In this document: positions 5,988-37,000 of the stretch, in pieces
How the letters are laid out: each line of letters starts with the position of its first letter
Numbering within the stretch: the first letter of the stretch is position 1
NCBI GenBank assembly: GCA_002269645.1
Contig: NIVC01002121.1
Coordinates: 116,193 to 180,192, forward strand
Source: Macrostomum lignano
Taxonomy: Eukaryota
Reading direction: 5' to 3'
DNA length: 64,000 nucleotides
Notes under the pieces: generated by a model
What the model saw: only the letters and a program-made list of their open reading frames with translations
What the model was told of the DNA's origin: nothing
Databases searched by the model: none
Position numbers and translations under genes: made by a program

Positions 5988-8900
5988 ATGCTGCAGATAA
6001 AAGCGCTGTTCTATCTGACTATGCTGGCACTCAGTCTTGTCCAGCTTGTCAGCTCAGACGAGCACAACCACGTGTACGAGGAGGGCGAAGAGGTCGTACT
6101 GTGGATGAACACCGTCGGCCCCTACCACAATAGACAGGAGACTTACACTTATTTTTCCCTGCCATTCTGCCGCGGTCCCAAGCAGGACATTGCCCATTAC
6201 CACGAGACGCTTGGCGAAGCTTTGCAAGGCGTTGAATTGGAATTGTCCGGCTTAGACATCGACTTCAACGTGCCGGTGAAGCGGACCACCTATTGCGAGG
6301 TGACGCTGTCCGAGGAGAAGGCCGAAGCGTTCATATACGCCGTTAAAAATCACTATTGGTACCAGATGTACATTGACGACCTGCCAATCTGGGGTATTGT
6401 TGGCGAAATTAGCAAAGACGATCCGCCGCAGTTCTATCTGTGGACGCACAAGAAATTAGATATTGGCGTCAATGCCAAACAGATTGTTGATGTTAATCTC
6501 ACTAGCGACTCTAAAGTGCTGATTAAACCTGGCGCCAAGGTTACCTTCTCTTACGAGGTCACGTTTAAACCTTCGAAGGTGCAATTTGCCGACCGGTTTG
6601 ATAAGTATCTGGACCCGAGCTTCTTCCAACACCGGATTCATTGGTTCTCGATCTTCAATTCGTTTATGATGGTTGTATTCCTTGTTGGCCTGGTGTCCAT
6701 GATCCTGATGCGAACTCTGCGCAAAGACTACGATCGCTACAATAAGGCCGACGATGTGGACGATTTGGAGCGGGATCTCGGAGATGAGTACGGCTGGAAG
6801 CAGGTCAGGAGCAGCTACATGTAGTTATCTCAGTGTGTGTTGGGCTTGGGCTGTCGTTGACGGATATAGAAGGAAGAAAAATCTGGAAGCAATTATGATC
6901 AGAGTTAACTAAGTAACTTCAGAGCAAATAAGATTATAAAATATTTTTCCATTCAATGGCATGAGCAAACGGATTTAGTAAACTTGATTGATGTTATCTA
7001 ATGAGCAATCCAGTCAGTGCCCTTTTATTCGTTAATTAGCAGCTATAAATTTTGTTTTTGCGGCTTATACTCGTAGCTTGCAGTGTCGCTTAAGTGGCGT
7101 AAGGCGAGTACGAAATGTCGCAAAACACCGTCAGACAAGCAATGACCGACGCTAAAATTCAGAATCGGGGTTGGGCTAAAGCAGGGGTCTCCAACCCACT
7201 GTTAGCAGCGGGCCGCATTCAATATTTATTTAAGATACGCGGGCCGCAAAAAGTGCACAAAAGTTAAGAAAAATTTAGTCAAAGTCAAGATATAGCATTA
7301 GTCTACTACAAAATGACACCTTTCCCTACAAAACTACACCTTTCCCAACAAAATGACACCTTTCCCTACAAAATGACACCTTTCCCAACAAAATGACACC
7401 TTTCCCTACAAAATGACACCTTTCCCTACAAAATGACACCTTTCCCTACAAAATGACACCTTTCCCTACAAAATGACACCTTTCCCTACAAAACTACACC
7501 TTTCCCAACAAAATGACACCTTTCCCTACAAAATGACACCTTTCCCTACAAAATGACACCTTTCCCAACAAAATGACACCTTTCCCTACAAAATGACACC
7601 TTTCCCAACAAAATGACACCTTTCCCTACAAAATGACACCTTTCCCTGCAAAATGACACCTTTCCCTACAAAATGACACATTTCCCTACAAAATGACACC
7701 TTTCCCTACAAAATGACACCTTTCCCAACAAAATGACACCTTTCCCTACAAAATGACACCTTTCCCTACAAAATGACACCTTTCCCTACAAAATGACACC
7801 TTTCCCTACAAAATGACACCTTTCCCTACAAAATGACACCTTTCCCAACAAAATGACACCTTTCCCTACAAAATGACACCTTTCCCTGCAAAATGACACC
7901 TTTCCCTACAAAATGACACCTTTCCCTACAAAATGACACCTTTCCCTACAAAATGACACCTTTCCCTACAAAATGACACTTTAAGACTACTGACTGCTTG
8001 GATAGTTGAGGCAAAATTGATTAAATTGCATAAGTCAGTGTTGCGATTATCCGACAGCAATGATAACCACGTGAGTTGCGTGATACCGTTGCCTTGGCAA
8101 CAGAAAGATCTCCGACCGCGCATACTTTTCGCATCAATACTTGTCACAACCTTCGATATTTGATAGTGAATTTCCGGGATGGGGTGTTCAAAATGCTGCA
8201 AGTTACTTATATCATAGCAATTCAAGCAGTAGGGAGTATTACACGCCTACTTAACGGCGATCGTTAAATCTTGTTAACCGTAAGGCCGCATTTGTACATT
8301 GCCGAAATTGCCGATACAGTCATGGGTGCTCGCAGACAATCTTGCTCAACAGTTGTATTCAGAAATAGCTTTTGACTCTTATTGCGTGTACCGGTATGGG
8401 GGTAATTGAGCCAATAGATTCTCACAGCGTGTCAAAAATTGTTTATAACCCCCCTCCCAGGTGCACGGTGACGTGTTCCGCGCCCCAACCCAGCCGCTGC
8501 TATTCTCCGTCCTGATTGGCTCCGGCCTGCAGCTGGCCTGCGTCATTCTGGCCGTAGTCAGCCTGGCCATGCTAGTAGAGATGTACACCGAGCGGGGCAG
8601 CCTGCTGTCAGCCACTATCTTTGTGTACGCGGCCGCCAGCCCAGTTGGCGGATTCGTTGGCGGCGCCCTGTACGCCAGATCCGGCGGCAGGAAGTGGATC
8701 AAGCAGGCCGTGGTGCAGGCCTTGTTTATACCGGCTCTGCTCACCTCGGTGGCTCTGTCTGTCAATCTGATCGCTATCGGCTATCGGGCCTCGCGCAGCC
8801 TGCCAGTGCTGCACAGCATCGCCATGCTGGCAATCCTTGGCTTCGTCATCCTGCCGCTGAGCCTTGTTGGCACCGTGCTGGGCCGCAACCTGGCTGGCCA

Positions 8901-9926
8901 GCCCAACCTGCCCTGTCGGGTTCGTTTCGTCTGGGGTTTTAGCTGTTGCTATGGCAATGCATCGGATGTATCACTGTCGTATCAGCTGATCCCAATGTCC
9001 TGTGATCTCCTATCATGTCAGCAGATTCCCACCATGTCAGCTGATCCCAATGTCATGTCAGCCGATTCCCATCATGTCAGCTGATCCCCATCATGTCAGC
9101 CGATTCCCATTATGTCAGCCGATCCCCATCATGTCAGCTGATCCCCATCATGTCAGCCGATTCCCATCATGTCAGCTGATCCCCATCATGTCAGCCGATT
9201 CCCATCATGTCAGCTGATCCCCATCATGTCAGCTGATCCCCATCATGTCAGTTGATCCCCATCATGTCAGCCGATTCCCATTATGTCAGCTGATCCCAAT
9301 GTCATGTCAGCCGATTCCCATGTCAGCTGATCCCCATCATGTTAGCTGATCCCCATCATGTCAGTTGATCCCCATCATGTCAGCTGACTCCCATAATGTC
9401 AGTAGCTTATTACTATCTTATCAACCCATTACCCCATCCCCAGGTGAACGCGGTGCCCCGGCCCATACCTGAGAAGCGCTGGTTCATGGAGCCGCCAGTC
9501 ATCTGCCTGCTAGGCGGCCTGCTGCCCTTCGGCTCGATCTTCATCGAGATGTACTTCGTATTCACCTCGTTTTGGGCCTACAAAGTCTATTACGTGTTTG
9601 GCTTCAGTTTCCTGGTGTTCCTCATCCTGCTGTGCGTCACCGGCTGCGTCACGGTCGTGTGTGCCTACTTCCTATTGAACTCCGAGGACTACCGCTGGCA
9701 GTGGTGCTCCTTCCTCTCCGGAGCGTCCACCGCCCTCTATCTGTACATGTACGCCGTGTACTATTTCTTTTTCAAGACCAAAATGTACGGCCTGTTCCAG
9801 ACATCATTCTACTTTGGTTACATGGCCCTGTTCTGCGCCGCTTTGGCTCTGGTCTGCGGCGCTATCGGTTTTGTGGCTACTAGCTTGTTTGTCCGCAAGA
9901 TCTATTCTACAGTGAAGATTGACTGA
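5988..9926 (+). CDS. TM9SF3: Transmembrane 9 superfamily member 3; join(5988..6803,8461..8919,9444..9926), 585 aa
   Basis: Signal peptide, [51 protein letters not shown]|VHGDVFR, PCR|[11 protein letters not shown] and C-terminal [10 protein letters not shown]. All three exons join in phase 0 with GT-AG. Confidence 0.95.
7310..7980. repeat. 20-bp minisatellite (AAATGACACCTTTCCCTACA), ~33 copies, TM9SF3 intron 1
   Basis: Head-to-tail units. Confidence 0.95.
9010..9395. repeat. ~19-bp minisatellite (GCTGATCCCCATCATGTCA/GCCGATTCCCATCATGTCA), TM9SF3 intron 2
   Basis: Alternating variant units. Confidence 0.9.
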
Positions 9927-14307: not shown

Positions 14308-14488
14308 GGTTGTAGCCTAGTGGTAAGAGTGTCGGACTCACGAATGAAAGGACGGGGGTTCGATTCTCGACCAAATCGGAACAGTTGGTGTACTTGAACA
14401 AGAAACTTAACTCTGCATTGCTTCAGTTCACCCAGCTGTAAAATGGGTGCCAGCATTAGCTGGGGTATTTGAGGGTGTGTGTGGCGAC
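14308..14488 (+). mobile_element. tRNA-derived SINE, 5' half (disrupted by the Polinton-like element)
   Basis: Colinear with 2201-2390 up to GTGTGTGGCGAC. Confidence 0.85.
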
Positions 14489-14872
14489 AGTAGTAGGTAA
14501 AACGACGCCTACAGACCCAGAGCACTTTTTTAACAGCCGTTTTAAGGGTCTAGAGGGGGGACACGGGGGTAAATAAAAAAACACATCTAAACACCCTTAA
14601 CACATCTAATCACCCTTAATCACCCATAAACACCCATAATCACCCACATTACCAAAAAAGCAATATAACCCATCCCCAACCCATCTTATCAGCCCCCCTC
14701 GTGTCCCCCCTCTGGAACCTTATAAACGGCCATTAAAAAAGGTCTGATCTGTAAGCGTCGTTTTACCTACTACTACACATCCAACACCCCCCAACACTTC
14801 TAACACTTCCAAATCTCTATAACCCCTCGCACGCGCCGCAGGCGCGAAGGGTCTTTTTCTGTTACTAAAAAT
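14489..14872 (+). repeat. Left terminal inverted repeat (384 bp)
   Basis: Reverse complement of 23061-23443; three differences seen by eye (one G-run indel, two substitutions). Confidence 0.95.
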
Positions 14873-15185
14873 GACCCGAGTTTACACCTTTTCTGTTAGT
14901 GATACTTTTGAGACTGTTGCTAAAAATGCAGAGATAATAAAACAACATATTTTGAATGGAATAATTGATGAAGTTTATTTGAAGTATGACGACAAGCACG
15001 ACCTAAAACTTTATCCATTAGAGTTGGATGAGATGTATGATTTAGAACAAGAGGGTGAGTTAATATTTCAACTTGGAGATTATTTAAATTCGGATGATTG
15101 GGAGGTTCGTTCAGATGATTCCAACTCAACAAATAGCTCATATGAAACTAGTGATTCTGAGAATGAAATTGAAATTTTTATGTAA
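14871..15185 (+). CDS. Element ORF: acidic hypothetical protein, 104 aa
   Basis: ATG at the TIR boundary in AAAAATG context; D/E/S-rich C-terminus; no family recognised. Confidence 0.6.
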   Translation: MTRVYTFSVSDTFETVAKNAEIIKQHILNGIIDEVYLKYDDKHDLKLYPLELDEMYDLEQEGELIFQLGDYLNSDDWEVRSDDSNSTNSSYETSDSENEIEIFM

Positions 15186-15188
15186 AAA

Positions 15189-15443
15189 ATGAACTATTAC
15201 TCTATAACAGAAACGACATTTATTGTGAAAAATATATATAAAAAAATGAAGGTAAATCGAACCCTAGGTTCGCGTGCTATGCACGATTACTCCTACATCG
15301 GAAATGTTCCAATTAATGAACTTAATGAAAATTTAAGTCTAATCACTGTTGAACAAATGTCAATAATTATATTAGTAACAATAATAGTAATAATATTGTT
15401 TTTGTTTGTTATAAAAAATTTACTACCATGTTGTCTCAAGTAA
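15189..15443 (+). CDS. Element ORF: small protein with C-terminal transmembrane helix, <=84 aa
   Basis: Hydrophobic IIILVTIIVIILFLFVI followed by KNLLPCCLK; AAAAAATG starts at 15189 and ~15246. Confidence 0.55.
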   Translation: MNYYSITETTFIVKNIYKKMKVNRTLGSRAMHDYSYIGNVPINELNENLSLITVEQMSIIILVTIIVIILFLFVIKNLLPCCLK

Positions 15444-15453
15444 TTGTTCGAAC

Positions 15454-17087
15454 TTAGTTCGCTGATATTAGTTGGTTCTCATAAAACGAACCCAATATTT
15501 CTTCACCATCCTTATCAGCAATTATATAGGTTGTAGGATTGGTATTTAAAACTTTACTGATAGTAAATATCTCACTTATTTTCCAATATCCTTTTCTTCC
15601 TTTTTCAAACTTATCTTTCCATTTATAGATATAAACAGAATCACCAACCTTAAAAGATTTCTTTTTATTTTTTTCAAATTCTCTAAAAGTAACTTTAACA
15701 TTTTCAGGATTGCTATAAGCTTGTTGAGGAGTCATCTTTATCGTACGAAATCCGCGTTCCGAAGGAACGATAGCCGAATGATATGAATTATTATAATCTT
15801 TCACGACGTCTGGTAATATTTTTACCCACTTTTGGTTTCCATTAAGACTAAACTGAAACCACAATTTCTTACCTAAAGTTCGATTAAATCTTTCAATTAA
15901 TGCGTTTTTGCTTTCTCCATAAATAGAATAAATTTTATTAATATACTCCCCATTCGCGTCCTTCATCCTTTCTTTTCCTTTTTCAAAATGATATAATTTA
16001 TACATATGAGGATTGTAAAATTCTTTTCCTTCATCAACACATAGCCGCTCACTTTTTTCTCCAAGACTTCTAAAAGCAGCAGCAACCTCCTCACCTTTTT
16101 TGGATTTCAAAGGAACAGCCCACGCGTATCGAGTAAAACCATCTAGTATGGTTAAGATATATTTATATCCTCTTTCATTTGGCATCGACATTAAATCAGC
16201 ATACCAAATTTCGTTCTTTTTGAAGTTCATGATTTTTCTATAAAATTTAGGTTTTCGATATTCTTTATGAAGAATCTTTGCCTCATCAGAACTTAACCCA
16301 CTGCCACTTAATAATAAACACTCAACACAATTATTTCCATGTTGATTGTAATTAATTCCCAAACCAAATTTAACTTTAGATTGCAGAATCTTTTTAATCA
16401 TCCACCTAGTTAATCTTTGGCCTATTGACAATCCTTGTAAATTATCCAATCCTTCAATCATTTTTCTATCGGCTTCATGTTTTAATCTTAATGCTTCCTC
16501 GGGTGAGTTCTTATCAGCATCTCTGTATGCTAAGTCATGATAGTATGCTAACCAATCAATACCATTAATGGGAATTGAATCAGCTTTTGGAGTATCATCA
16601 GGATTTAATCGGAGATCGAGTCGAGTCAACCCGGCCTTTATACCTTTGCTTTCACAAAGGAGTAGACTGTGTCTTAAGCTATCATAAGGATTGACTAAGT
16701 CCTTCAAGCCCACCAGCGTACAGTCGTTGCATCTCAACCATACTCAAGTCATACGAGGTTAGGTTTTCGATTCACTCTTGTCCATATATATCTTCAAGCT
16801 TGTTACCGTTGGGAACAGGAGTTACCTGTGTTCCTTCAGAAGATTTCTCAACTGAAGTGGTACTTGAAGCTTTAGGAGATTGAGTGAGCGGCTGGTGTTG
16901 CCACTAATAGTGACTAGCAGTAGGTTTGCTTCTACCACTCGGGCACAGCTCGAGCTCCACCCGTGAAATTATACGACGGCAGGTGTAATTCATTTGTATA
17001 CCTTCCAGTAGTAAAAACGCTTGGTAAGCTTGTTAATCCTTTTTGTAAGTCTAAAAATCCTCCTTCAAATACTAATTGATTGCTCAT
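15454..17087 (-). CDS. PLA2 (parvovirus/adintovirus-type)-retroviral-like integrase fusion; join(17087..16959,16635..15454), ~436 aa after removal of the group I intron
   Basis: Exon 1 ends ELHLPSYNFTG; exon 2 continues AGLTRLDLRL...PINGIDWLAYYHDLAY...HEAD (PLA2 HD/D catalytic motif). The DDE core follows (WYADL, CVDEGKEF, IERFNRTL), then a Polinton-type C-terminus (GDSVYI...FTISKV...PTTY..GEEILGSFYENQL). Confidence 0.85.
16636..16958 (-). ncRNA. Group I self-splicing intron, 323 nt, no internal endonuclease ORF
   Basis: Minus strand: P1 exon CGGGU with GCCCG (16940-16944; U-G pair at the 5' splice site); P3 CACCAGC/GCUGGUG (16891-97/16711-17); P4 UCACUC/GAGUGA (16882-87/16772-77) with AA in J4/5; P6 AUC/GAU; P7 A(C)GACUG/CAGUCU (16721-25/16665-69) in the S motif AAGACACAGUCU; P9 CCUUUGU-GAAA-GCAAAGG (16643-60); terminal G. 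Excision restores the reading frame. The exact 3' G could differ by a few nt. Confidence 0.88.
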
Positions 17088-17685
17088 TTTTAATAGCCTT
17101 AAAAATACACGATAGCACCAATTGTTTTGCAAATTCATCAATGGTTGGTTGTTTATCATTTTTTGAAATATTATCTACAGCAACTAAGTATCTTTTATTT
17201 CTCCAATTTTCAGACTTTTTAATTTGTTCATCATCGCGATAATCATATGAAGAAGCAGGAATAAAATGATCAATATGTAAAGCACCACAATAGTCTTTTG
17301 GGACGTAATAATGTTTTGTGAAATTTAACCAATCAGTAAAGAATTCAATTGAGCAACCAAGGTAATCAATAGTATGATTATTTTTTCGAGTATTATTAGA
17401 TTTTAGAAGAGAATTTATTCTACATCTGGTGTTTTTTTTATTTCTAAAATTTTCATCAGTTAATCTTCTTTCATTTTCATATTTTCTGCGGCTTTCTATA
17501 TTATTTTTATCGTATTCTTTTTTCCATTGAAGCTTATATTCACGATTTTTCTCATACCATTCTTTATCATACTTTCTCTCACAAGGTTTGCAAATACTAT
17601 AATATCTATTTTGATCTCTACGAAATCTAAACTCAAACAAAAATTTCTCATCTTTACACTTAGTACAAATCTTTTTAGTTTCCAT
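17065..17685 (-). CDS. HNH homing-type endonuclease of the giant-virus-like family with N-terminal CxxC...CxxC Zn finger, 206 aa
   Basis: CTKCKDEK...ICKPC; DYLGCSIEFF; HIDHFIP...N..YL...DNISKNDK (HNH core). Confidence 0.75.
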   Translation of the reverse strand: METKKICTKCKDEKFLFEFRFRRDQNRYYSICKPCERKYDKEWYEKNREYKLQWKKEYDKNNIESRRKYENERRLTDENFRNKKNTRCRINSLLKSNNTRKNNHTIDYLGCSIEFFTDWLNFTKHYYVPKDYCGALHIDHFIPASSYDYRDDEQIKKSENWRNKRYLVAVDNISKNDKQPTIDEFAKQLVLSCIFKAIKNEQSISI

Positions 17686-17708
17686 TTTATAAAAAATAAA
17701 TTTAACAA

Positions 17709-18380
17709 TTAAACACCGGTATGTCCAGCAGCTTTCGCAGCAGCTAAAACAAGTTTTCGTGGAGTTTTAAATCCTTCTCCAACAGCCGGTTTGTTATTTA
17801 TAGAATCAACAATCCTTTTATATAAACTTGTATTCTTAGCAGCTCTTACTCCTAACTCATCATAAAAATTTTTAGCACTTACTAATTCATCTCTAGTGTA
17901 TAAATCGGGGTTAAATTTTACCCTAGGGTTCATAACAATATTATATGCTCCACCCAATTCTCTATATAGCTCATTCTGATTTTTATTAACCCCACCAATT
18001 CGATAATTATTATTATCTAAATCTGTCACAGCAATACTAGTTGGTGCAGGTCTCGGATATTCATCAACTCCACCCCTTTCTGCAGCCCTAATTTCTGCAA
18101 CTCTCAATAGTGCTTGAGCAACATCATAAGTAGGCGGCTCATCCAAAATTTCATCCTCTTTTGGCTCTGTATTCTTAGCAATTTTTTCCAGAAGGTCTTT
18201 ATCTGTTTTTTCTAGTTCACTAATTTTCCCCGTAATAGGATTAACAAAAGGAGCAGCAAATCTTTCACCAGCTAATTGTATTCCTAACTTTCTTTTTTGC
18301 AAATTTCTAACAAAATCAGAATATCTTTGCTTTTCTTTATAAATCGCTAACTCTCCATCAACGTCCATAAATTGACTCAT
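17709..18380 (-). CDS. Element ORF: Polinton-associated conserved hypothetical protein, 223 aa
   Basis: Clean ORF with AAAAATG start. C-terminal GEG...LAAAKAAGHTG resembles a conserved uncharacterised Maverick protein (recalled similarity, unverified). Confidence 0.6.
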   Translation of the reverse strand: MSQFMDVDGELAIYKEKQRYSDFVRNLQKRKLGIQLAGERFAAPFVNPITGKISELEKTDKDLLEKIAKNTEPKEDEILDEPPTYDVAQALLRVAEIRAAERGGVDEYPRPAPTSIAVTDLDNNNYRIGGVNKNQNELYRELGGAYNIVMNPRVKFNPDLYTRDELVSAKNFYDELGVRAAKNTSLYKRIVDSINNKPAVGEGFKTPRKLVLAAAKAAGHTGV

Positions 18381-18413
18381 TTTTTAACATAAAAAACTTT
18401 TTTAACTTAAAAA

Positions 18414-19886
18414 ATGGCTGAAACAAAAACTATGTGGAGTGATAAATTTCATTTCAAAAAGCACCGCCAGTATATTAATGAAGTCAGAGCAAGAGATTTA
18501 AATTTTACCCTACCAACAAGTGATAATTCAAATAACTTTACAACCGGAACGGTAACTTTTGACATCGGCGCAACCAACACTATATTGGATATGAAAAATG
18601 CGTTTTTCCGTGTTAGATGGTTGTATACTAGAAATGATGGAACTGCTCTTGCAGCCGGCGATATCGCAGATCGTTCTGGTATTATAATAGAAAATGATTG
18701 GTTTTATAAATGTTTTTCCCAAGCCCAACTGTCAGTTAATGGAGCCGAGGTTGAGACAGCATCAAACCCCGCAGAGATTAATGGAGTTTTGAAACATTTA
18801 AATTATACTTATTTATCAAAACAAGTTGGTGATAATGTTGGGTGGATGCCTGATAAGGGTAATGGTCAAGCAGTAGTTTTCCCTAATGTACAAAACGCAG
18901 CTGGTGCAGATACCGCAGCTCTTATAGCTTATCTTAATACCAATATAGTTCCAGTTGTAACCACTATGACTAATACAAAAGAGATTAATACAGGTTTTAT
19001 AGATCGTCAGAATAAATTCCCAGTCGCGGTTTTAACCACAGCAACAGCATATGAGCAAGACTTTTCAATCTTTCCGCTATTTGGGTTCTTCTCACCAAAT
19101 CGGGTATGGAAAGGATTAAAATTTGGGATACAATTGCAAATATCTGGTGGATATCAGCCTAGGATACTTTATGGAACCTCAATTTCAACCGATATAGCAG
19201 TTCGTATAGATTCAATTCAATTAGTCGTACCAACTATTGAGGTAACAGCCCCACTTTTAAAACACATTGATAATCAGTTAACGCATGATCAGGAAATATT
19301 TTATTTGAATCGTCGACATTTTATGCGAACCATTAATAATAACCAGGATTCATTCCAGTGGCAGATAATTACATCAAAACGTCGGGTGAGATATATTTTT
19401 GTTTGGTTTAAAATAACAAACAGAAGGAGTAAAAGAACAAATGGGGATTTATATTGGCTTCAATCCGGTGCCATAGCAGCACAAGCAGCTACTGCAACAG
19501 ACAATGCGGCTGCAGCTATTAACGAGTTTAATGTTCAGAACATCCGCCTGCAGGTTGATGATCAATATTATCCGGTTAAAGACCCCCTTAATCTAAACAT
19601 AGCAAATAATAATGTTAATGATTTTATAAAATATTATCAAGATTATGTCAAAAATGAAGCGTTTGCCGTCCCTCAGTACACACCCACAGAGTTTCTAAAC
19701 ATTCATCCAGTGGTTGTTTATGATCTAACGGCACAGAAAGAAAACGTAGCCAATGTTGGACTTAATTACATGTTAGAGATTAATAAAACCGGTAATCAGG
19801 CAATCGACGCCCACGTATTGTTTCTAGAGGAATATATGTCAATTGCTAAAGCTGATGGCACGATTGTTCGGGACGCGCCAATTTAG
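18414..19886 (+). CDS. Major capsid protein (predicted double jelly roll), 490 aa
   Basis: Size, beta-rich pattern, motifs FDIG..TILD..NAF, FSQAQLSVNGAEVE, QYYP...LNL and PVVVYDLT.Q.E typical of Polinton MCPs; lies directly upstream of the ATPase and penton. Confidence 0.8.
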   Translation: MAETKTMWSDKFHFKKHRQYINEVRARDLNFTLPTSDNSNNFTTGTVTFDIGATNTILDMKNAFFRVRWLYTRNDGTALAAGDIADRSGIIIENDWFYKCFSQAQLSVNGAEVETASNPAEINGVLKHLNYTYLSKQVGDNVGWMPDKGNGQAVVFPNVQNAAGADTAALIAYLNTNIVPVVTTMTNTKEINTGFIDRQNKFPVAVLTTATAYEQDFSIFPLFGFFSPNRVWKGLKFGIQLQISGGYQPRILYGTSISTDIAVRIDSIQLVVPTIEVTAPLLKHIDNQLTHDQEIFYLNRRHFMRTINNNQDSFQWQIITSKRRVRYIFVWFKITNRRSKRTNGDLYWLQSGAIAAQAATATDNAAAAINEFNVQNIRLQVDDQYYPVKDPLNLNIANNNVNDFIKYYQDYVKNEAFAVPQYTPTEFLNIHPVVVYDLTAQKENVANVGLNYMLEINKTGNQAIDAHVLFLEEYMSIAKADGTIVRDAPI

Positions 19887-19944
19887 TGTCGCAGGTCTCC
19901 GACCATCGCCCCGCTGTAAAATTAGTTAAATTATTTCTTTAAAA

Positions 19945-20729
19945 ATGGTAAAGGCAAAACACGATAAGATATTTCCAAATGATCCTTTTCTTTGTTTAGT
20001 AATTGGTGGGTCGGGTAAAGGAAAAACACACTTTGTTTACGATTTATTAACAACAGATGGAATGCTAGACTATAATAATTTAATAATTTATACTAACAAA
20101 CCTAGAATAAAATATTATGAATTTCTTAAACATGGTTTAAAAAACAAATTAAAAAAAGATATCTTGTTTAGAATGTTAAGAGCATATGAGCAATATGAGG
20201 ACGATGATGAACCAAGATTTACACTCGATGACATTGAGGATTTATGTAAAACAACAGCAAAAGAACCGGAAAACACCACCGATCGCCCCGAAGGGTCGCG
20301 GACTTCGTCCGATCGAGCCCCAACTGTTAGAGTATCAACCCGATTATCCTATGATCAAATTCCAAAACATGATAAAACACTAATTATTTTTGATGATTGT
20401 ATTAATGATGGTGATCAAGAATTGCAAAAGGAAATTTTTGTTAGTGGTAGAGGAGATGGAATTGGAGCTTTTTATCTTACTCAATCCTTTAGAGAATTAG
20501 AATCGATTATAAAAAAGAATGCTAGCTGTTGTGTAATGTTTGATTTAGATAACTATGATTTACAAAATATACACGCTAGATTTAATCCTGGGTTGGATGC
20601 AAAACCATTCAAAAGTATGTGTAAAAAATTTGGGATGATAGTCAATACAAACATATATATATCAACCCTAGGTTAGAAAGGAAAAATCGAATCTTAAAAG
20701 ATCTGATAAAAGAAGACGATGAGGAGTGA
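19945..20729 (+). CDS. A32/FtsK-HerA packaging ATPase; 1-nt frameshift near 20625 (ORF track ends 20676, shifted frame ends 20729)
   Basis: Walker A GGSGKGKT, Walker B LIIFDD, arginine-finger motif GRGDGI...LTQSF. The shifted frame from 20631 reads WDDSQYKHIYINP...EE*, fitting the usual C..W...Y..I.I tail. Confidence 0.88.
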
Positions 20730-20775
20730 TCGTTCCTTCGGAACGCGGACTTCGTCCGATTCTCCCACTATAAAA

Positions 20776-21561
20776 ATGGCTACAAATTTAGATACTATAA
20801 AACAATTGGTAGATCGAACTAATTCAAAATTTAGTACAACCTTACAGTTTATAATGACAACCAGTGAACAACGCATTCAATTGCGCGATCCATTACAACT
20901 CGATCAAAGCCTAAGTTATCAAATAGGTTTGATACTATTTTCAGTTTTTAACATGCCTCAATTAATTAATGCAACAAATAATCAATTTAGATATTCTAAA
21001 GATTCAGGAGCCAATTGGACAACATTTAGCGTTAATCCAGGAGCGTATTCCTATACCGATTTGAATGCTTATATAGAAGGAGAATTAACAGCTAATGGAG
21101 ATTGGGTATCAGGCGCAATTGTTATAGGGGTTGATTTACCATCTGGCAGATTCACACTATCACTCGAATCCGGATATCAGGTTGATTTCACAATTGCAAA
21201 TTCACTCAGAACCATACTTGGATTTAATTCCCGAATAGTTACCACATCAAGCACCGGCGATACAGTGGGAAATATTGAGGGTGGAGTTAATACAATTAAT
21301 ATAACAACCGATATATCAAACGGTGGTTATATAACAGACGATAATGGAGTTTTGGTTCAACGTGGAATTATTTATTCCATCCCATTTCTTGCTGTTCCAA
21401 TTGGAGAGAAAATGATTGTTTCACCCCAAACCCCAATATATTATCCTTTAAATCAATATAGTGTTCAATCAATTTATATTAGGATTGTAGATGAAAGCGA
21501 TAGATTAATAAGTTTTGGTGGGCAGTCAATAACAATAATTTTACGGATAAAACAGGTTTGA
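20776..21561 (+). CDS. Minor capsid (penton-like, single jelly roll) protein, ~261 aa
   Basis: Start MATNLD in TAAAAATG context; L.DPLQL...YQIGL..F, NNQFRY...W...NPGAYSYTDLN and YYPL..YSVQSIYIRIVDE..RLISF pattern of Polinton minor capsid proteins. Confidence 0.72.
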   Translation: MATNLDTIKQLVDRTNSKFSTTLQFIMTTSEQRIQLRDPLQLDQSLSYQIGLILFSVFNMPQLINATNNQFRYSKDSGANWTTFSVNPGAYSYTDLNAYIEGELTANGDWVSGAIVIGVDLPSGRFTLSLESGYQVDFTIANSLRTILGFNSRIVTTSSTGDTVGNIEGGVNTINITTDISNGGYITDDNGVLVQRGIIYSIPFLAVPIGEKMIVSPQTPIYYPLNQYSVQSIYIRIVDESDRLISFGGQSITIILRIKQV

Positions 21562-21605
21562 CCGAACCGAAGGTTCGAGGACATCGTCCGTTTCCTATAG
21601 TAAAA

Positions 21606-21779
21606 ATGGGTAACAATAATAGTTTAAAAAAACAATCAGATAAAGTTCAAAACGCAAAGGATAATTATGAAATCGAACTAACAAAATTGAAACAATTACA
21701 AGCAGAAAAAATCCGAAAGGAACTATTAAAATCCAAACCTACGAAACTAACTAAAACCAAGAGTTTTTCAGGAACATAA
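21606..21779 (+). CDS. Small basic protein with N-myristoylation consensus (MGNNNS), 57 aa
   Basis: TAAAAATG start; Gly2/Ser6; Lys-rich coiled segment. Confidence 0.55.
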   Translation: MGNNNSLKKQSDKVQNAKDNYEIELTKLKQLQAEKIRKELLKSKPTKLTKTKSFSGT

Positions 21780-21780
21780 A

Positions 21781-22020
21781 ATGGTAATAACTTGGGGCGA
21801 CTTCAAACAAAGATATGGAACTGACACAACAAGCAATATTGAATTAACAAATTGGGCGCGGCAGTTAAAAATAAAACCATTCAGATGTGTTATGCGAGAT
21901 GAGATCAAAGACTTACCACAATATGGATCTTTCATTGTTAATATTGAAACAACAAAAGAAAATGGTGTTCAGTGCTATCGTGTATTTTTAAGGCTATTAA
22001 AAATATTAAAAAAAAAATAA
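21781..22020 (+). pseudogene. Truncated adenain-like cysteine (maturation) protease
   Basis: TSNIEL..W...L.IKPFRCVMRDE..DLP...FIVNIETTKENGV matches the N-terminal half of Polinton proteases up to the expected catalytic His (G-x-H-W). At that point the sequence switches to a 33-nt copy of 17086-17118 and stops. Confidence 0.72.
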
Positions 22021-22629
22021 TATAAAAACATTACTACTATTAATGGTATCAATAAGTTTCTGTTTGAATTGTGCGTCCTGTGTTATTTGCTGTCTTTGAA
22101 ATTCTGCATCTCGTTTAGCTTTTTCATCCGCAGCTTTTTTATCATTTACTGCTTTTGTGATTCCAGCTGCGCCCCCTGCTATTCCACCAGCTGCTCCTAT
22201 TCCTGCAAAAATTATTGGTAATAAAGTTGCTAATGGCAATATTCCTCCTTGTTTTGCTTTTAATTCTGCTAACTGTTTTCGGTTATCATGAATTCTTTTA
22301 CCTGCTAAACCGGCTGCTCCGGCTGCTCCGAGGCCTAAAAGAATTGGTAAAATAGGTAACAACCCACCGTCTTTTTTAGTGTGAGTCTCCAATAAAAATT
22401 TTACATCAGAGTCTGTCAACCTATAATTTCTACCATGATACTTAAAGGATATTGGCCTTCCTTCTTGTGCATATTTTGCAGCAAGTTTAAATGTATCGAT
22501 ATCGTAGTCAAGTTTTTTACCTAAACGATCCAATTTTTTTAACATTGTGTGGCTATGTTTATTATCATCTAGATCTAAAGTATCTACAATTTCTCCTATA
22601 AAATATAAGCGGTCGTTATCTGTGTCCAT
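22006..22629 (-). CDS. Membrane-active core/cement-like virion protein with two GG-LP...GAAGG hydrophobic repeats, 207 aa
   Basis: KKDGG-LLPILPILLGLGAAG and AKQGG-ILPLATLLPIIFAGIGAAGGIAGGAAGITKAVNDKK, a motif typical of Polinton/adintovirus core proteins. Confidence 0.65.
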   Translation of the reverse strand: MDTDNDRLYFIGEIVDTLDLDDNKHSHTMLKKLDRLGKKLDYDIDTFKLAAKYAQEGRPISFKYHGRNYRLTDSDVKFLLETHTKKDGGLLPILPILLGLGAAGAAGLAGKRIHDNRKQLAELKAKQGGILPLATLLPIIFAGIGAAGGIAGGAAGITKAVNDKKAADEKAKRDAEFQRQQITQDAQFKQKLIDTINSSNVFILFFF

Positions 22630-22639
22630 TTTTATATTG

Positions 22640-23050
22640 TTAAAATTTCTTTAATCCTTTTCCGCCTTTAATTGTGGTTAACATTTTATTAAAATCCTGA
22701 ATATCTTTATTACTTATTGGCGCGCTTTTCGTGGGGGTTTCTGTTGGTTGTGCGGCTTGAGTTGTTTCCTGCGCTAGTTTCAAATCTTTTATTGCTTTTA
22801 TTTGTGAGAGGGTGTCGTTAAATTCTCTCAATTTCTTTAGTTCTTCTACTGCCCTCGCTGCTTCGATTCCGCCCTTTACAGCGTTTGTTATAGAACCTGC
22901 TGCAGAGCCTGCTTGGCCTATAAGACCCATATTGTCTTTAACGAAATTCGCTGCTGTACCAACCACATCAAAAAGACCCTCACCTCGGTATTCAACTGGG
23001 TCTCCCACCTGCAATTCGTTCAGATTTTGCATATGTGTAACGTGTGTCAT
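22640..23050 (-). CDS. Putative virion core protein with amphipathic helix, 136 aa
   Basis: RGEG-LFDVVGTAANFVKDNMG amphipathic segment; C-terminal KGGKGLKKF; AAAAAATG start next to the right TIR. Confidence 0.55.
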   Translation of the reverse strand: MTHVTHMQNLNELQVGDPVEYRGEGLFDVVGTAANFVKDNMGLIGQAGSAAGSITNAVKGGIEAARAVEELKKLREFNDTLSQIKAIKDLKLAQETTQAAQPTETPTKSAPISNKDIQDFNKMLTTIKGGKGLKKF

Positions 23051-23060
23051 TTTTTGTTCT

Positions 23061-23443
23061 ATTTTTAGTAACAGAAAAAGACCCTTCGCGCCTGCGGCGC
23101 GTGCGAGGGGTTATAGAGAATTGGAAGTGTTAGAAGTGTTGGGGGGTGTTGGATGTGTAGTAGTAGGTAAAACGACGCCTACAGATCAGACCTTTTTTAA
23201 TGGCCGTTTATAAGGTTCCAGAGGGGGGACACGAGGGGGGCTGATAAGATGGGTTGGGGATGGGTTATATTGCTTTTTTGGTAATGTGGGTGATTATGGG
23301 TGTTTATGGGTGATTAAGGGTGATTAGATGTGTTAAGGGTGTTTAGATGTGTTTTTTTATTTACCCCCGTGTCCCCCTCTAGACCCTTAAAACGGCTGTT
23401 AAAAAAGTGCTCTGGGTCTGTAGGCGTCGTTTTACCTACTACT
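23061..23443 (-). repeat. Right terminal inverted repeat (383 bp)
   Basis: Reverse complement of 14489-14872. Confidence 0.95.
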
Positions 23444-23513
23444 GGCGACCCCCCAGTCCTTGGACTGAACAGCCGTGCGCAGCCTTCAGATGCGCCGCGC
23501 AATAGCTGCGGCT
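23444..23513 (+). mobile_element. tRNA-derived SINE, 3' half
   Basis: GGCGACCCCCCAGTCCTTGGACTGAACAGCCG..GCAGCCTTCAGATGCGCCGCGCAATAGCTGCGGCT matches ~2385-2456. Confidence 0.88.
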
Positions 23514-31027: not shown

Positions 31028-34000
31028 TTAATAATCATCCTTGACCCGTTTAGCCTGCTGCATGGGATCCTGGGCCAGCCGCTTGCTGCCTGTAGCCAGG
31101 CCGCCGCCCCCAATGCCAACGCCTGGCAGGGCTGAGGCGCCCTCCTGCAGCCAGCGGACCTGAGTAGCCGGTCCGTAGCCTTTGTCATTCCTAGCGGCGA
31201 TGCGAAATATGACAGCCGGCTTGCTGCTCATATCGATGTAGGCGGCGGCCAGGCTCTGGTTGGACACCTGGCAGAATGGCTGGGAGCCGCAGTACACTCT
31301 AGCGAATGACATCTGCTGCTGGCCGCCGGCCGTCTTGGCCTCGATGCTGCTGGCACCGACCGGGGCCGGTTTCACGGCTAAGTACACCGTGTACTCGAAT
31401 ATGTCGCCGGAACCCGGGGCGCTGGGCGGCGGCGGCTCCCAGGATAGCTGGGCGCCGAAATCTGACTTATTAATTTTAATAGCCGACGGAGCGCCTGGGA
31501 AGCCGGGCACGCAGGTTTTGTAGGCGGCCACCTCGGACCAGGGCCCGCGGCCGCAGGCGTTAACAGCGCACACGCGGAATCTGTAAGCAGTGCCAGGCGT
31601 CAGGTCGCAGCGTTCGAGTACGCCGGCACTGTTGGGAGCCAGGTAATTGCGCACGCAATAGGAGGTGCCGCGCACCGTGGCCACGTCGTGCCAGAGCCCG
31701 CCGCTGCCGTCGGCATTGGACGACGAGGCCGGCGACACGCCGGATGCCACAAGCGGATTAGCCGAAGACGATGTTGTTGAAACTGTGGCGGCTGGCGTAG
31801 CTTTTTTCAGGCCGGCGGCGGCCACGCTGGCCAGGGTGGCCAGGGGATCGGCCAGCAGGCCGGGCGTGCCGTTGGCTGAGTCGGCCACGGTGGCGAACAG
31901 GTCGTAGGGCAGGTCGGTCGGCAAATCCTCGCTGCCGCCGGATGCCGTAGCGGCTGCGGCGCCGGACGTTGTCGGAGTCGCGCCCGAAGTCGACGACGAC
32001 GAAGCGGCGGCCTGATGGCCATCAGGCTTGTCCGCTCCGGCAGCCTCGTCGCCTTCATCAACAGCGCCGTCGAATTGCGGAATTGTTGAGGAGCCGCCAG
32101 CGTCAGAAGTTGAGGCTGAGGCGCCGGTGCCGCCGGTACTGATGACCGGCTTGACAGTGAATGATGGCGCCTGCTGCTGCTGACCGCTGGCTGGCGCATT
32201 CATGACAATGATTGGCGATGCGGTGGCTGCGCCCTGCGCCTGCGGCTGGCCGATAGAGCCGCGGCTAGCAGCGATGATGTACTTGGAGGTGCCGGTAGCG
32301 CCAGGAGCCAGAGGCCTAGCCTGCTGCGGCAGCAGCTTCACAACCTGCGATGCGCTGGACATGGTTGGCCGGAGAATCTGCTGGCCTGTGGGCGTCTTCA
32401 CCAGAGTCATCATCTGCTGCTGAGCGAGCTGGCCAGCCGGCCTGGCTAATTGGATCACCTGGGCTGGCCGGCTGACAACCACGGTCGGGGCCACGCGCTG
32501 CGGCTGCAGAGTCACCCTGGCAACACCGCCGCCGCCGCCGCCGGCTGCCATCGAGGCCGACACGGGTACGCCTGCGGCCATCAGGGCGGCAACGCCGGGT
32601 TGAATAGCCGAAGTCGGCGTTGGCGGAGGCGTCGGAGCCGGCACTACTAAGTCGTACTTTTGAATCTGCAGCACGTATTCGTCAGCTGTGGCTACAGCTG
32701 GCCAGCACACGTCTAAACTGTGAGTATTGGCTTTGACTAGCTGGACTCGGCCAACCACTGGCGGAGCGTCTGTCTCCAGTAGCCAGAGATCTTTGAAGCA
32801 CACCTGCGAGTGTTATGCGGCGAGTTTGACACTGATGTAATGGGTGAGATTCAGAAAACAGAGAATTAAAGGGCGTGAGGGGAAGCGGACAAACCAAAAG
32901 ACCAGAGGCGGATTTGGAAATATAAAATGAGGGGGGCGGATTTTAACCATAAGTGGGGGCGCCATAATATACACCAGAGGGGCACCATAATATACACTAG
33001 AGGGGCACCATAATATACACTAGAGGGGCACCATAACATACACTAGTGGAGTACCATATTAGACACTAAGAGGGCGCCATACTGAGCAAACTGAGGGCGG
33101 AGGGGACCCTCTTTAGGGCAAAGGAAAAGGGGCGGCCCAAAAGCCAATCCAACAAACCTGATTGCCCCAGGCCTTGCGAAAGCCGTCTCTCCCGGACCAA
33201 ATCCACAGTCGGCTATTGACGGACACGGCGCAGTGGCCGGCGCGCGGCCTCGGCACCAGATCGTCGGCGGCGGCACTACTGGGATAGTCGTACACGTGCC
33301 AATTAAGAGTCTCCAAGTCCAGACAGGCCAGGGTGTTGGTGCAGCGCCACTCGGACTCGGCCTGGACGGTGTCGCCAACGCTGAGCGCCTCGGTCTTGTC
33401 TCGCTCGGTCATGGCTGCCCAGCCGCCGAAGACGAACATTTTAGCGCCAATCATAGTGGCGCTATGCAGCGACCTTGGCGCCGGCGGACTACCGTGCACC
33501 ATTGGCCTGGTCCAAACCAGCGAATCCAAATCCAACTGCCACAGATCGTTAAGCCTAGTGCCATTGTTCATGCCGCCAAACACTAGCAGGTGCCATTTAC
33601 GTTGGTTATTAACGCCGGCAGTTTGGAAGGACACGGCCGAGTGCGACTCGCGCGGGCAAGGCGTCATGCCGGCCGGCTTCAGCAGATCCCAGGCGGTGTT
33701 GCCGGCCTTCACGTCCATGGCGTATAGGTCGTCTAAATAATGCGGCACGTTGGCCTTCAAATCGGTGCTCTTGTTGGCCAGGCCGCCGAATAGGATGGCC
33801 CGGCCGCCGGCCAGGGTGAACGAGTGGCCGAGTCTGGCGCAGGGCGGCGGACCGTGACGCGGCGGCTTCGGTTTAATCCGCTTCCACTCCCATCTGGTGG
33901 CCTGCAATTCGAATACTTCGTCAGAATAGCGGCCGTATTCCATCATGCCGCCGAATAGTAGAATTCGGGTGCCATCGGCTACAAAGCCGAAGGCGGCGCA

Positions 34001-37000
34001 GCCGTGTGGCACATCGCCTCGCACCTGCGGCTGGAACCACTGGCCAGTGGCTGCGTTGGGTTGGGGGTAGAATATGTTAGATTAATTAGACCATACGCCA
34101 TTGTTAACTACTTGGAAACTAAGACAATTAATCTAGCAGACTATTTGCCCATCTCAGTTAAACGGCTAGTTGCAGAATATTTCTATGCAACAAATAGCCA
34201 ATTTTAATGTTGAAAATTTCAAAATTAAGGTTGTTAACAAGCATAAACCACTTCTATAACCTTCTTTAGTCTGTTTGTCTCTTTAGTAGATGGGTTAGTG
34301 GCATGTTTTGAAAAATGGAAGAGAGGAAGTAGCTATCAATTTTTAACTGCTGATGTGTATTGAATGTCTGTTTAATCAAGAGGATTTCAGTTTTCATAGA
34401 GAGGATTTTTGATAGATTTCTATTTCTTGGAGAGGATTTTGGTTGAATTATCAATCAAAAAGGGTCCTTTATGCCTATACTCAGGAAAGTGTCACATGTG
34501 CTCAAAAATATTTTTAGCATCTCTTTTGGAGCATGCACTGTGCGCAAAGCTAAAATACAAATTTTAGCACTAAGTCTTATATTTGTTTGATATAAAAATA
34601 CCTATATAGTGGAGCACTAATGTATAGTAATACTAAAAAATCTAGTAAAATTCAAATTAAATTAAAATTTAAATTAACAGATCAATTTTGTTGCATTTTA
34701 AGGCCTTTTTAATTAAATTTAAAATTCTGTTTTATTTTAGCTCATACTAGCAATCAGCACCCCCCATTGGGGAGCCAAAAAAATGCAGTAAAAGTTTTTT
34801 AATGAACTACATGTAGCATTTCTTTGCATTATACCTTAGTAGTCCCTTGTAAACCTTGACGTGTCAGCAATTCCGCCACAAGCTTTAACATATCAACCCC
34901 CCCTTGACATCTTAAAAAATTGGTCAACCTAGCTTCTAAGCCTAACCCTAGCCTAATATAACCTTAATATAACCTTAACCCTAGCCTAACCCTAACCCTT
35001 AAGCATTGACATTTTAGTAATTCTCACCAAGAGTCATTATAGCACTACATCATCATATCAATTCCCTGCAACCCTCAACATTGTAGATATTCCCAAATAA
35101 ATCTCTTAACTTTGACATGACGCTTCTTTTGTTTTTTTAAATGAACTTTTTTTATCAGTGAATAAAGTTGAATAAACTACATATAGCTTCTGACTTTAGC
35201 CTTGACATCTCATTTATTCCCCTATGAGCCTTGACATCTTAGCTATTCCCCCATAAGCTTTGACATCATAGTAATTCTCCTCAAAAGTCATAGCACAGTT
35301 TCATATGATATTTTTACATGATGCTTCTTTAATGTCTAATATGAAATTTCTTTCATTTCTGATATTACACTTCCTTCATGTCTGACTGACATGACGCTTC
35401 TTTTGTCAAGGCTTTATTCTACTTTAGAATAAAGTACATGTTTATACCTGTTTAAACTACAGCTTCTCTTTGCAATAACCTTAGCAATCCCTTGGGAGCC
35501 TTGACATCTCAGCTATTCCCCTTGCAAGTCTTGACATCTTAGCAATGCCCCCCATAAACCTTGAAATCTGAAAAATCACCTGTCAACCTTGAAACCCCAT
35601 AAACCCTAATCCTAAATCAAAACCTAAACTAAACCTAACCCTAACCCTAAAGCCTTTACATTGCAAAAGTTCTTCTCCCCTAAGCCTTGACATTTTAGTG
35701 ATTCCTCCCCAAGAATCACAGCACTATAGCGATTCCCTCCAAGCTTTGACATTGTAGCAATTCCCAAATGAATCTTTTAACTTCGACATGACTCTTTTTT
35801 ATGTCTACATAATGCTTCTTTTCTTTTTACATGATGCTTCTTTTATCAGCGCCCCCCGTGGCAAGCCAACAAAGAATATAAAAAAAAATTTGAGCACAGT
35901 ACATGTAGCTTGACTTTTGCCTTGACATCTCAGAAATCCCACTATAATCCTTTACATCTCAGTTATTCTCTGTGAGCCTTGAGTGTGCCTTGAGGAGTAA
36001 TTCTCCTTAAGAGTCACAGCACAGTTTTATGTGATGCTTCTTTTATTTTTGACATTATGCTTCTTTTGATTTTTACACAATACTTCTTTCATGTCTGACA
36101 TGACACTTCTTTTATTATTCTTTCTTTTATTATTATTTTTACATGACCCTTCTATAATTTTTACATGACGTTTCTGAAATTTTTACATGACATTTCTTGA
36201 ATTTTTTACATGACACCTCTATAATTTTTTACATGATGCTTTTATGATTTTTTTATATGACACTTCTATAATTTTTATATGACACTTCTTTTTAAAAAGT
36301 TTTTTAGTTTTAGTTTTTAGAAGCTTTAATAAAACAATTCTACTCTAAGAAAATTTGAACCATCATTGCTGCATTTAGCAATTTGGTCTATTACCTCTAG
36401 GCTAGCTCTCATTGTTTTGATAGCATGAAATTTAGTGCTTATATAATTCAACACTTTAAACTCCAAGCATAGAGTAAATCACACAAAGCAGTTATGAGAT
36501 AATCAATTTCTCAGTCAGTCAGTATCAGTTAACAATATGGTGCTACGCTTCCACAATGCATTTTCAATTCAAGTTGAAGTTACAATTCAGTTATGATGCA
36601 ATTTATTTCAGAATCAGAATTCAACCAGTCAGTTTTTTCTGTAGCATTCTTATAATGCTTTTGCATATGCATATTTTTTCTAATGCATATTAGAAAAACA
36701 TGCTTCTAATATCTTAGGAAAAAAAATCATACTATGTTCTATTATCACTATTATCATGCTTTTTGTCTTATTCCATAGATTCCTATAGCCAATGTTCTTA
36801 ATTTAAATAAATAAATAAATATTAGAAACAGGTAGAATAAGACAAATATACTTTGGTAAACTGTATTATAGACTTAGAAACTTATAGATTATATCTAATC
36901 AGTGTTGGGCACTGTTAATGAAAATCTTAACTTCCATTAAAAACAAAAGCATTAATGTTAAAATGAAAAAAAGCTTAACTTTTTAACTCTTTATTTTGTT

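Follow-up and report, generated by a model that had tools for sequence, protein, structure and literature searches.

Nuclear group I introns are described as occurring exclusively in the ribosomal RNA (rRNA) genes of eukaryotic microorganisms (PMC3679873), and reviews together with a 2025 database likewise record them only in rRNA genes of microbial eukaryotes (PMC3679873, PMC11835236), while the group I introns of animals are mostly mitochondrial introns of class IB4 in placozoans, corals and sponges (PMC11835236). Among viruses, Bodo saltans virus has homing group I introns (PMC5871332), and in Polinton-like viruses (PLVs) such introns are confined to a few protist groups (PMC12220804). Collaborative homing in phages offers a route to composite introns (PMC3984707); for PLV genes it has been raised as a hypothesis only (PMC11296320; 10.64898/2026.10.13.758929), and the polymerase of a nematode Polinton has an HNH domain possibly derived from a group I intron (10.1101/2023.08.22.554363). 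In adintoviruses a parvovirus-type PLA2 domain sits on pX, as PLA2X (PMC8502044). Here we describe a stretch of 64,000 nucleotides of Macrostomum lignano (contig NIVC01002121.1, positions 116,193 to 180,192; hereafter the window), in which what is almost certainly a group I intron interrupts the PLA2-integrase gene of a Polinton integrated in animal nuclear DNA.

The closest counterparts are the PLV introns of Rhodomonas lacustris, Paulinella micropora and Desmodesmus armatus, which likewise match RF00028 (309-376 bp long) and interrupt protein genes of endogenous PLVs; the gene concerned is there a short one that precedes the capsid gene, and no intron nuclease is annotated (PMC12220804). The present introns differ in their animal host, in their position within the calcium loop of a PLA2-integrase, in being of three types (A, B and C) at one site and in having a nuclease that is both free and intron-borne. 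Giant-virus introns (PMC5871332; IMG/VR contigs) resemble them as viral mRNA introns with homing nucleases and with the P7 and P9 type of the window intron, but belong to cytoplasmic protist viruses not integrated in an animal nucleus and interrupt RNA polymerase or ubiquitin genes; the window intron, of type A, has its own P4/P6, and its peripheral domains are common with its IC1-like sisters. The introns of nuclear ribosomal DNA (rDNA) are nuclear as well (PMC3679873), whereas the present ones lie in a protein gene of an animal; with the IB4 introns of placozoans, corals and sponges (PMC11835236) they share the animal host, but are nuclear and viral. Phage collaborative homing (PMC3984707) is alike in that a free nuclease stands beside an intron without an open reading frame (ORF) and in that a composite intron houses its nuclease in one of the loops; here, in contrast, both states of one nuclease family are present in one animal genome, and the enzyme, whose cleavage activity is inferred, is an Eco47II/EcoO109I-like PD-(D/E)xK nuclease. 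Finally, animal Polintons and adintoviruses have in common with our element the integrase, jelly-roll capsid, A32 ATPase, pX-like gene, PLA2 domain, terminal inverted repeats (TIRs) and 6-bp target-site duplication (TSD); here PLA2 is fused to the integrase instead of pX, the window copy is without the protein-primed DNA polymerase (pPolB), and the available part of that paper mentions no self-splicing intron (PMC8502044).

The preliminary description of this locus had held a ribozyme intron in an integrated animal Polinton to be new. The animal host is new, and the novelty is narrower than claimed because protist PLVs already have group I introns (PMC12220804). The ribozyme class and the homing logic were known before; new are the location in a protein gene of animal nuclear DNA, the mosaic cores in competition with each other and a nuclease that occurs both apart from the intron and within it. 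Self-splicing elements have reportedly been noted in coral Polintons, although our literature search did not retrieve such a report. That search, which covered mainly open-access articles without supplements (Tables S11-S12 of PMC12220804 and the database of PMC11835236 may bear on the matter), turned up no animal Polinton with a group I intron.

The favoured span of the window intron is 324 nt, with the terminal G at 16635, next to the end previously given (16636) and a third candidate (16627); the helices are listed in Table 1. Every core helix of the preliminary description was located on the minus strand, and group I identity is borne out by the RF00028 match, by covariation and by intron-less alleles. 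The U.G pair in P1 is present at the 5' splice site and this boundary agrees with the intron-less alleles, while the guanosine-binding G-C pair after the bulged base of P7 is found in 26 of 28 distinct cores, the window included. The fold has a z-score of -2.99, with none of 100 shuffles equally good, and the unspliced frame stops, as had been stated, at the ninth intron codon. The covariance-model check gave a divided answer: RF00028 matches in a 356-nt search with E 6.4e-7 and 33.1 bits, short of the 50 bits required by its gathering score, and a search over 2.5 kb around the intron found no match. Sister introns scored 63-85 bits in three of five sources, and the two intron-less sources gave no match; types B and C are above the gathering score, while the introns of loci L090 and L166 are missed by Rfam.

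The host gene is as previously proposed. Exon 1 matches the N-termini of the intron-less homologs P0001 and P0125, and exon 2 matches rve (PF00665, E 1.6e-7) and Phospholip_A2_4 (E 0.022), with homologs carrying PF00665 and PF08398 together. Two proteins, P0003 and P0024, start with a translated intron tail.

In the host genome (764 Mb), a search with exon 2 gave at least 150 matches, scored from 510 candidates. Type A was found in at least 24 places, type B in at least 111 core matches (RF00028 63-64 bits) and type C in at least 28 places (73-91 bits; 28 scored of 29,353 candidates), and all ten fetched type C copies end at the same PLA2 site. The three types start after the same Gly codon, at the Gly/Pro boundary of the PLA2 calcium loop, and the exon codons adjoining the intron vary synonymously. 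Intron-less sister copies, for which the preliminary description had proposed a search, were found in a close family (L050, L071, L072) and in a distant one (L061-L063). Metagenomic and viral loci had the PLA2 motif in 58 of 84 cases, of which 46 matched a pattern for the intact loop, a further 6 proved to have its spacing when read individually, 2 belong to a shorter class and 1 is truncated; outside the host genome, an intron at the same boundary was seen in 3 of these 58 (L090, and L121 and L166 on one contig). L166 is a viral contig of 10.7 kb (IMGVR_UViG_3300027939_000003) with a fourth intron type at this site, in which an IC1-like P4/P6 is joined to the P7 of type A. One type A copy (L024, on contig C249) has an insertion of about 835 bp with inverted ends in the P8 loop, which looks like a small transposon within the ribozyme.

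It is extremely improbable that this is not animal nuclear DNA, that is, contamination or misassembly from a protist, an alga or a free virus, although relatives are indeed present in environmental metagenomes. The element has TIRs and a 6-bp TSD and interrupts a host repeat, an uninterrupted copy of which lies at 2204-2456; the HCF-1 gene of the window (31028-34081) matches human 4GO6 with E 1.2e-59; Wnt genes share four contigs (C506, C952, C67 and C393) with intron copies; and intron copies lie on more than 100 contigs. On these grounds the earlier claim of integration in an animal nuclear genome stands.

Covariation was followed in 28 distinct cores from 51 of 54 loci. The P4, P6 and P7 cells are paired in 416 of 420 instances, with two-sided changes in 11 of 15 pairs, and P1 covaries between exon and guide, the G-C pair of type A being A-U in types B and C and in L166. 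A spliceosomal GT-AG intron at this site was rejected because its removal is out of frame with the integrase, and coding sequence or a small transposon was rejected on the missing TSD around the insert, the early stop and the group I covariation. Together these ordinary readings have a negligible probability: a GT does overlap the 5' boundary and an AG stands at 16637-16636, and against them also stand the Rfam scores of the sister introns.

The cores are distinct and the periphery is common. The IC1 subgroup is marked by J3/4 AAAU, P4 UGCGGG/UCCGCA, J6/7 UCA and a bulged A in P7; types B and C show or approach these motifs and, with P5abc, are in this respect like nuclear rDNA introns, whereas type A departs from them (CGC, UCACUC/GAGUGA, GCA and a bulged C) while having the IC1-type peripheral domains P2, P2.1 and P5abc. 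Between type A and the type B copy L025, 39 of 40 positions are identical in P2-P2.1 and 75 of 83 in P5abc, against 10 of 27, 12 of 28 and 16 of 31 in core segments. The P5abc of the window intron is identical to that of types B and C at 74-76 of 83 positions, compared with 71 of 83 for another type A copy, and P8 agrees with type C at 25 of 34. Since distinct cores share peripheral modules, we infer exchange of these modules by recombination between co-resident elements. An extra P5 hairpin of 30 nt is common to some type B copies and to type C of a different Polinton family (L058, L059, L066 and L069 against L064), pointing to exchange across Polinton families.

The P7 motif of type A, which is also that of L166, occurs in at least 123 stretches of viral contigs, many of them giant-virus metagenome-assembled genomes (MAGs), and in the P9 region of type A the giant-virus contig L234 is 93% identical over 46 nt. 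In the viral contigs L183-L262, many of them giant-virus MAGs, the intron family lies in RNA polymerase and repeatedly in ubiquitin genes; it has two alternative registers of P9.0, and which one applies depends on the base that follows P7. Scanning viral contigs for the core motif produced nine matches, which we judged to be chance, none having an Rfam match; a P5abc pattern search gave no matches, a single exon-2 query found no viral locus, and GenBank phages contained no match.

The 3' boundary decides whether the window gene is in frame. Tandem Gs at 16636 and 16635 are two adjacent candidate ends, and the earlier join at 16636 rebuilt the calcium loop in frame; the P9.0 rule and all intron-less alleles indicate one base further, so the terminal G is probably at 16635, judging from comparison with relatives. 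In a survey of 76 introns with a P7 of the window type, exon 2 could be fixed by a host-protein motif in 28, and 26 of these have a terminal G. In the 12 survey introns with an A after P7 (in 10 of which the motif of exon 1 was recognised too), the next base always pairs with the base before the terminal G, and both P9.0 pairs form in 9. In this family register the window forms both pairs with an end at 16635, one at 16636 and none at 16627. In every intron-less allele, too, the homologous boundary corresponds to 16635; these alleles read aromatic-x-G-P-G-T, one residue shorter than the earlier join, and the loop length is constant in all 52 readable intron-less homologs of the window class. 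The in-frame rebuilding of the loop therefore holds for 16636, and at the favoured end the frame is broken: joining at 16635 makes the window copy read Pro-Gly-stop, a frameshift within the first three codons of exon 2.

The 16636 junction is a serious rival. There the product would be an in-frame PLA2-integrase one residue longer (G-A-G-L-T), functional and dependent on splicing; the G-x-G is kept, loops of the form G-A-x-T occur in homologs such as P0007, P0017 and P0040, and two tandem Gs make at least a minority product plausible. The start of exon 2 does not vary among the 24 type A copies, nor does it occur anywhere apart from the intron. Comparing 13 distinct type A copies in 68 pairs, with pairs that contain indels left out, shows purifying selection on the PLA2 exon: per 70 codons there are 10.2 synonymous differences and 4.2 non-synonymous ones. 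A frameshift common to all 24 copies, open downstream frames and this selection fit 16636 at least as simply, which counts against 16635; recombination with type B copies could explain the shared frameshift. We nevertheless consider the 16636 junction rather unlikely, as it makes one of the two P9.0 pairs only, its extra residue is seen in none of the 52 homologs, and its P10 duplex (-11.4 kcal/mol, 177 of 1000 shuffles as good) is no better than shuffles. P10 pairing is possible at 16635 too without singling it out (-11.4 kcal/mol, 132 of 1000), and the best duplex is that of 16627 (-12.9 kcal/mol, 18 of 1000), which again tells against 16635. Splicing at this third G would give an in-frame protein without Pro-Gly, with the PLA2 loop damaged and the integrase intact; it is very unlikely, having no P9.0 pair in the family register, a distance of 16 nt from P9 compared with 7-8 nt for the other two, and a deletion of residues whose spacing is constant among homologs.

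If 16635 is the end, the earlier proposal that splicing gates integrase expression becomes doubtful for the window copy, because the frame is broken after 16635. Between 16626 and 15454 the integrase frame stays open, with an in-frame internal ATG at 16461, and since the integrase core lies entirely downstream of this ATG, splicing need not gate it.

Immediately upstream of exon 1 lies an HNH-like gene in which D-H-x-x-P..N..N-x-x-K is invariant in alignment A3. The family call is a lead: Pfam HNH matches homologs with E 0.022-0.3, an Atlas lead has a score of 0.87-0.89, and a PDB search gave no match. In 36 long loci this upstream slot is occupied by an HNH-like gene (25), an Eco47II-like PD-(D/E)xK gene (9) or a fragment (1), or is empty (1); in L166 it holds a GIY-YIG gene. 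The window intron has no nuclease ORF. Type C has one, placed in the P2.1 loop, and the ORF or a fragment stands beside the match in 28 of 28 type C places. Its product matches RE_Eco47II (PF09553, 29.5 bits, cut-off 25.9), with D65, E76 and K78 invariant (D...E-x-K), and its model (predicted local distance difference test, pLDDT, 91.7) matches EcoO109I (Z 8.6, root-mean-square deviation 3.9, 146 aligned; Foldseek TMq 0.62), while no PDB sequence match was obtained. The free upstream PD-(D/E)xK nuclease is 64-69% identical to this intronic one, and of the homologs of the intronic nuclease in other data sets (17 found), 10 of the 15 retrieved continue into translated intron core. By analogy with phages, the arrangement looks like a homing cycle caught mid-way. 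A point against it is that the intron-less alleles L050, L071 and L072 too have the HNH-like gene upstream, so that nuclease and intron are not strictly linked; strict HNH-intron linkage is ruled out by the slot tally including these three. At 17077-17078 a palindromic loose end appears in the contigs of three of four sequencing runs, which suggests that other copies have a hairpin inserted at this point, where the nuclease gene adjoins exon 1.

We propose that a group I ribozyme intron spreads by homing through the Polinton virus population of the animal and would enter the nucleus with each virus integration. In the first of two steps exogenous GTP bound at P7 would cut just past the U.G pair at 16959; in the second the released exon would attack after the terminal G, rebuilding G-P-G. 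The nucleases may cut intron-less alleles during co-infection, first as collaborative homing and then, in type C, with nuclease capture. In the window copy the ribozyme would most likely end at 16635 and the spliced RNA would stop two codons into exon 2, so that this copy would rely on others for PLA2-integrase or make integrase from the internal ATG; the 3' splice site may have decayed in many of the integrated copies, which would then receive PLA2-integrase in trans. That at least some of the intron types splice in the animal seems to us likely, and the whole account including the 16635 boundary is favoured with somewhat less assurance.

Further observations weigh against this account. Covariation rests on four related types retrieved with type-specific patterns, and 67 of 87 exact type B 3' ends have A instead of G. 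No splicing product was observed. The contigs of 4 of 24 sequencing runs (guessed to be RNA, from three studies) gave no joint across the intron and each of the four sets has a contig unbroken over the boundary between intron and exon 2; rare forms are lost from such contigs, an exon-1 side that had diverged would escape alignment at 85% and some of the reads may come from DNA, which leaves these data no weight either way. A working intron with a terminal A is said to be known from Coxiella. Type B copies 9-11 kb from a pPolB match end in G in 6 of 9 cases, compared with 14 of 78 others (Fisher p 0.004), a lead only, as the pPolB matches counted are a minimum and the copies share ancestry.

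Alternatively, the introns could be genuine yet without activity in the animal nucleus, having been acquired in or from a protist or giant-virus setting and amplified passively in defective integrated copies complemented in trans. Most type B ends without a terminal G, a type A frameshifted at its favoured site, a window copy without polymerase, and closest core relatives in viral contigs from the environment, often giant-virus MAGs, would all agree with it. Yet intron-bearing places (24 of type A, 111 of type B) far exceed intron-less ones (6 among fetched loci), the cores are almost never broken, adjoining codons vary synonymously and pPolB genes stand some 10 kb away from sister copies that have the intron, and we regard inert introns as distinctly unlikely.

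The element itself is a Polinton, as previously described: it has TIRs with AG...CT termini, a 6-bp TSD, an rve integrase, a double jelly-roll capsid protein and an A32 ATPase (Table 1). The capsid protein belongs to an alignment in which 28 of 37 members match PF21738, although the window protein itself does not; its model (pLDDT 82.9) resembles iridovirus, mavirus and Sputnik capsids (E 2.5e-16), with no PDB sequence match. From gene order and size we take the ORF at 20719..21561 to be a probable penton or minor capsid protein, and by its resemblance the truncated ORF that follows is presumably a maturation-protease remnant. Four ORFs of the element are without a convincing family match, including 14871-15443 (+), 17709-18380 (-) and 22640-23050 (-). 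No ORF for a protein-primed DNA polymerase was found in the 8,955 bp of the window copy, yet pPolB matches lie about 10 kb from intron-bearing sister copies, and the window element is therefore read as a non-autonomous derivative. An exact stretch of 33 nt is common to the end of the HNH-like gene (17118-17086, -) and the end of the truncated protease-like ORF (21972-22004, +), perhaps a scar of internal rearrangement. In the type C family (L180-L182) the PLA2-integrase gene lies near the element end, apparently just inside the terminal repeat, unlike the gene order of the window. Elsewhere in the window there are a host TM9SF/EMP70 gene with a minisatellite in one intron (8449-9926) and a second large inverted-repeat element of about 10 kb (34985-45070), AT-rich, laden with minisatellites and with few ORFs.

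Table 1. Location of the intron, its helices, its host gene and the genes of the surrounding Polinton (window positions)
Feature	Position	Strand	Basis or remark
Group I intron, type A	16635..16958	-	RF00028 match, helix map, covariation, intron-less alleles, P9.0 rule
P1, exon-1 end paired to internal guide	16940..16963	-	strands 16963-16959/16944-16940; U.G splice pair at 16959
P2 and P2.1	16900..16939	-	P2 = 16939-16916; helix map
P3, 7 bp	16897-16891/16717-16711	-	helix map
P4	16887-16882/16777-16772	-	contiguous with P6 16771-16769; AA in J4/5
P5abc peripheral domain	16790..16872	-	common to types A, B and C
P7 guanosine-binding helix, P3 3' strand, P8	16664..16727	-	P7 = 16727-16721/16669-16664: A-U, bulged C, G-C
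P9 hairpin, GAAA tetraloop	16643..16660	-	helix map
Exon 1 of PLA2-integrase gene	16959..17087	-	43 codons, ends at first Gly of calcium loop
Exon 2, PLA2 catalytic part and rve integrase	15454..16634	-	stop 16628-16626 at homologous junction
Free-standing HNH-like endonuclease gene (lead)	17065..17685	-	just upstream of exon 1; motif invariant in alignment
Polymerase-less Polinton copy, 8,955 bp, AGTAGT termini	14489..23443		TIRs and TSD
Left TIR, about 384 bp	14489..14872		inverted-repeat comparison
Right TIR	23061..23443		inverted-repeat comparison
6-bp TSD	left 14483..14488, right 23444-23449	+	element splits host repeat
Double jelly-roll major capsid protein	18414..19886	+	alignment family and structure model
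A32-like packaging ATPase	19945..20676	+	PF04665 E 8.3e-7
Probable penton / minor capsid protein	20719..21561	+	position and size only; no family match
Truncated ORF	21751..22020	+	no family match
Adenovirus pX-like core protein	22006..22629	-	PF05829 E 6.9e-5

More than 160 intron copies thus lie in a protein gene in animal nuclear DNA. They keep ORF callers from recognising the PLA2-integrase gene, and the intron type of the window escapes Rfam. In its boldest form the finding would mean that an animal nucleus routinely splices group I introns from virus-derived mRNA, that an active population of animal Polintons shows every stage of homing (an allele lacking the intron, an intron without ORF beside a free nuclease, and an intron with captured PD-(D/E)xK nuclease), that a single codon boundary is contested by unrelated cores which exchange their P2, P5abc and P8 modules, and that the commonest type splices with a terminal A; this combination we advance tentatively, as possible but falling short of the favoured account. 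The intron copies make testable the question of whether group I ribozymes are missing from animal nuclei because they are unable to work there or because they were without a vehicle, and the M. lignano genome holds natural controls for it: intron-less alleles, three core types, variants ending in G and in A, and one nuclease that is found both free and intron-borne.

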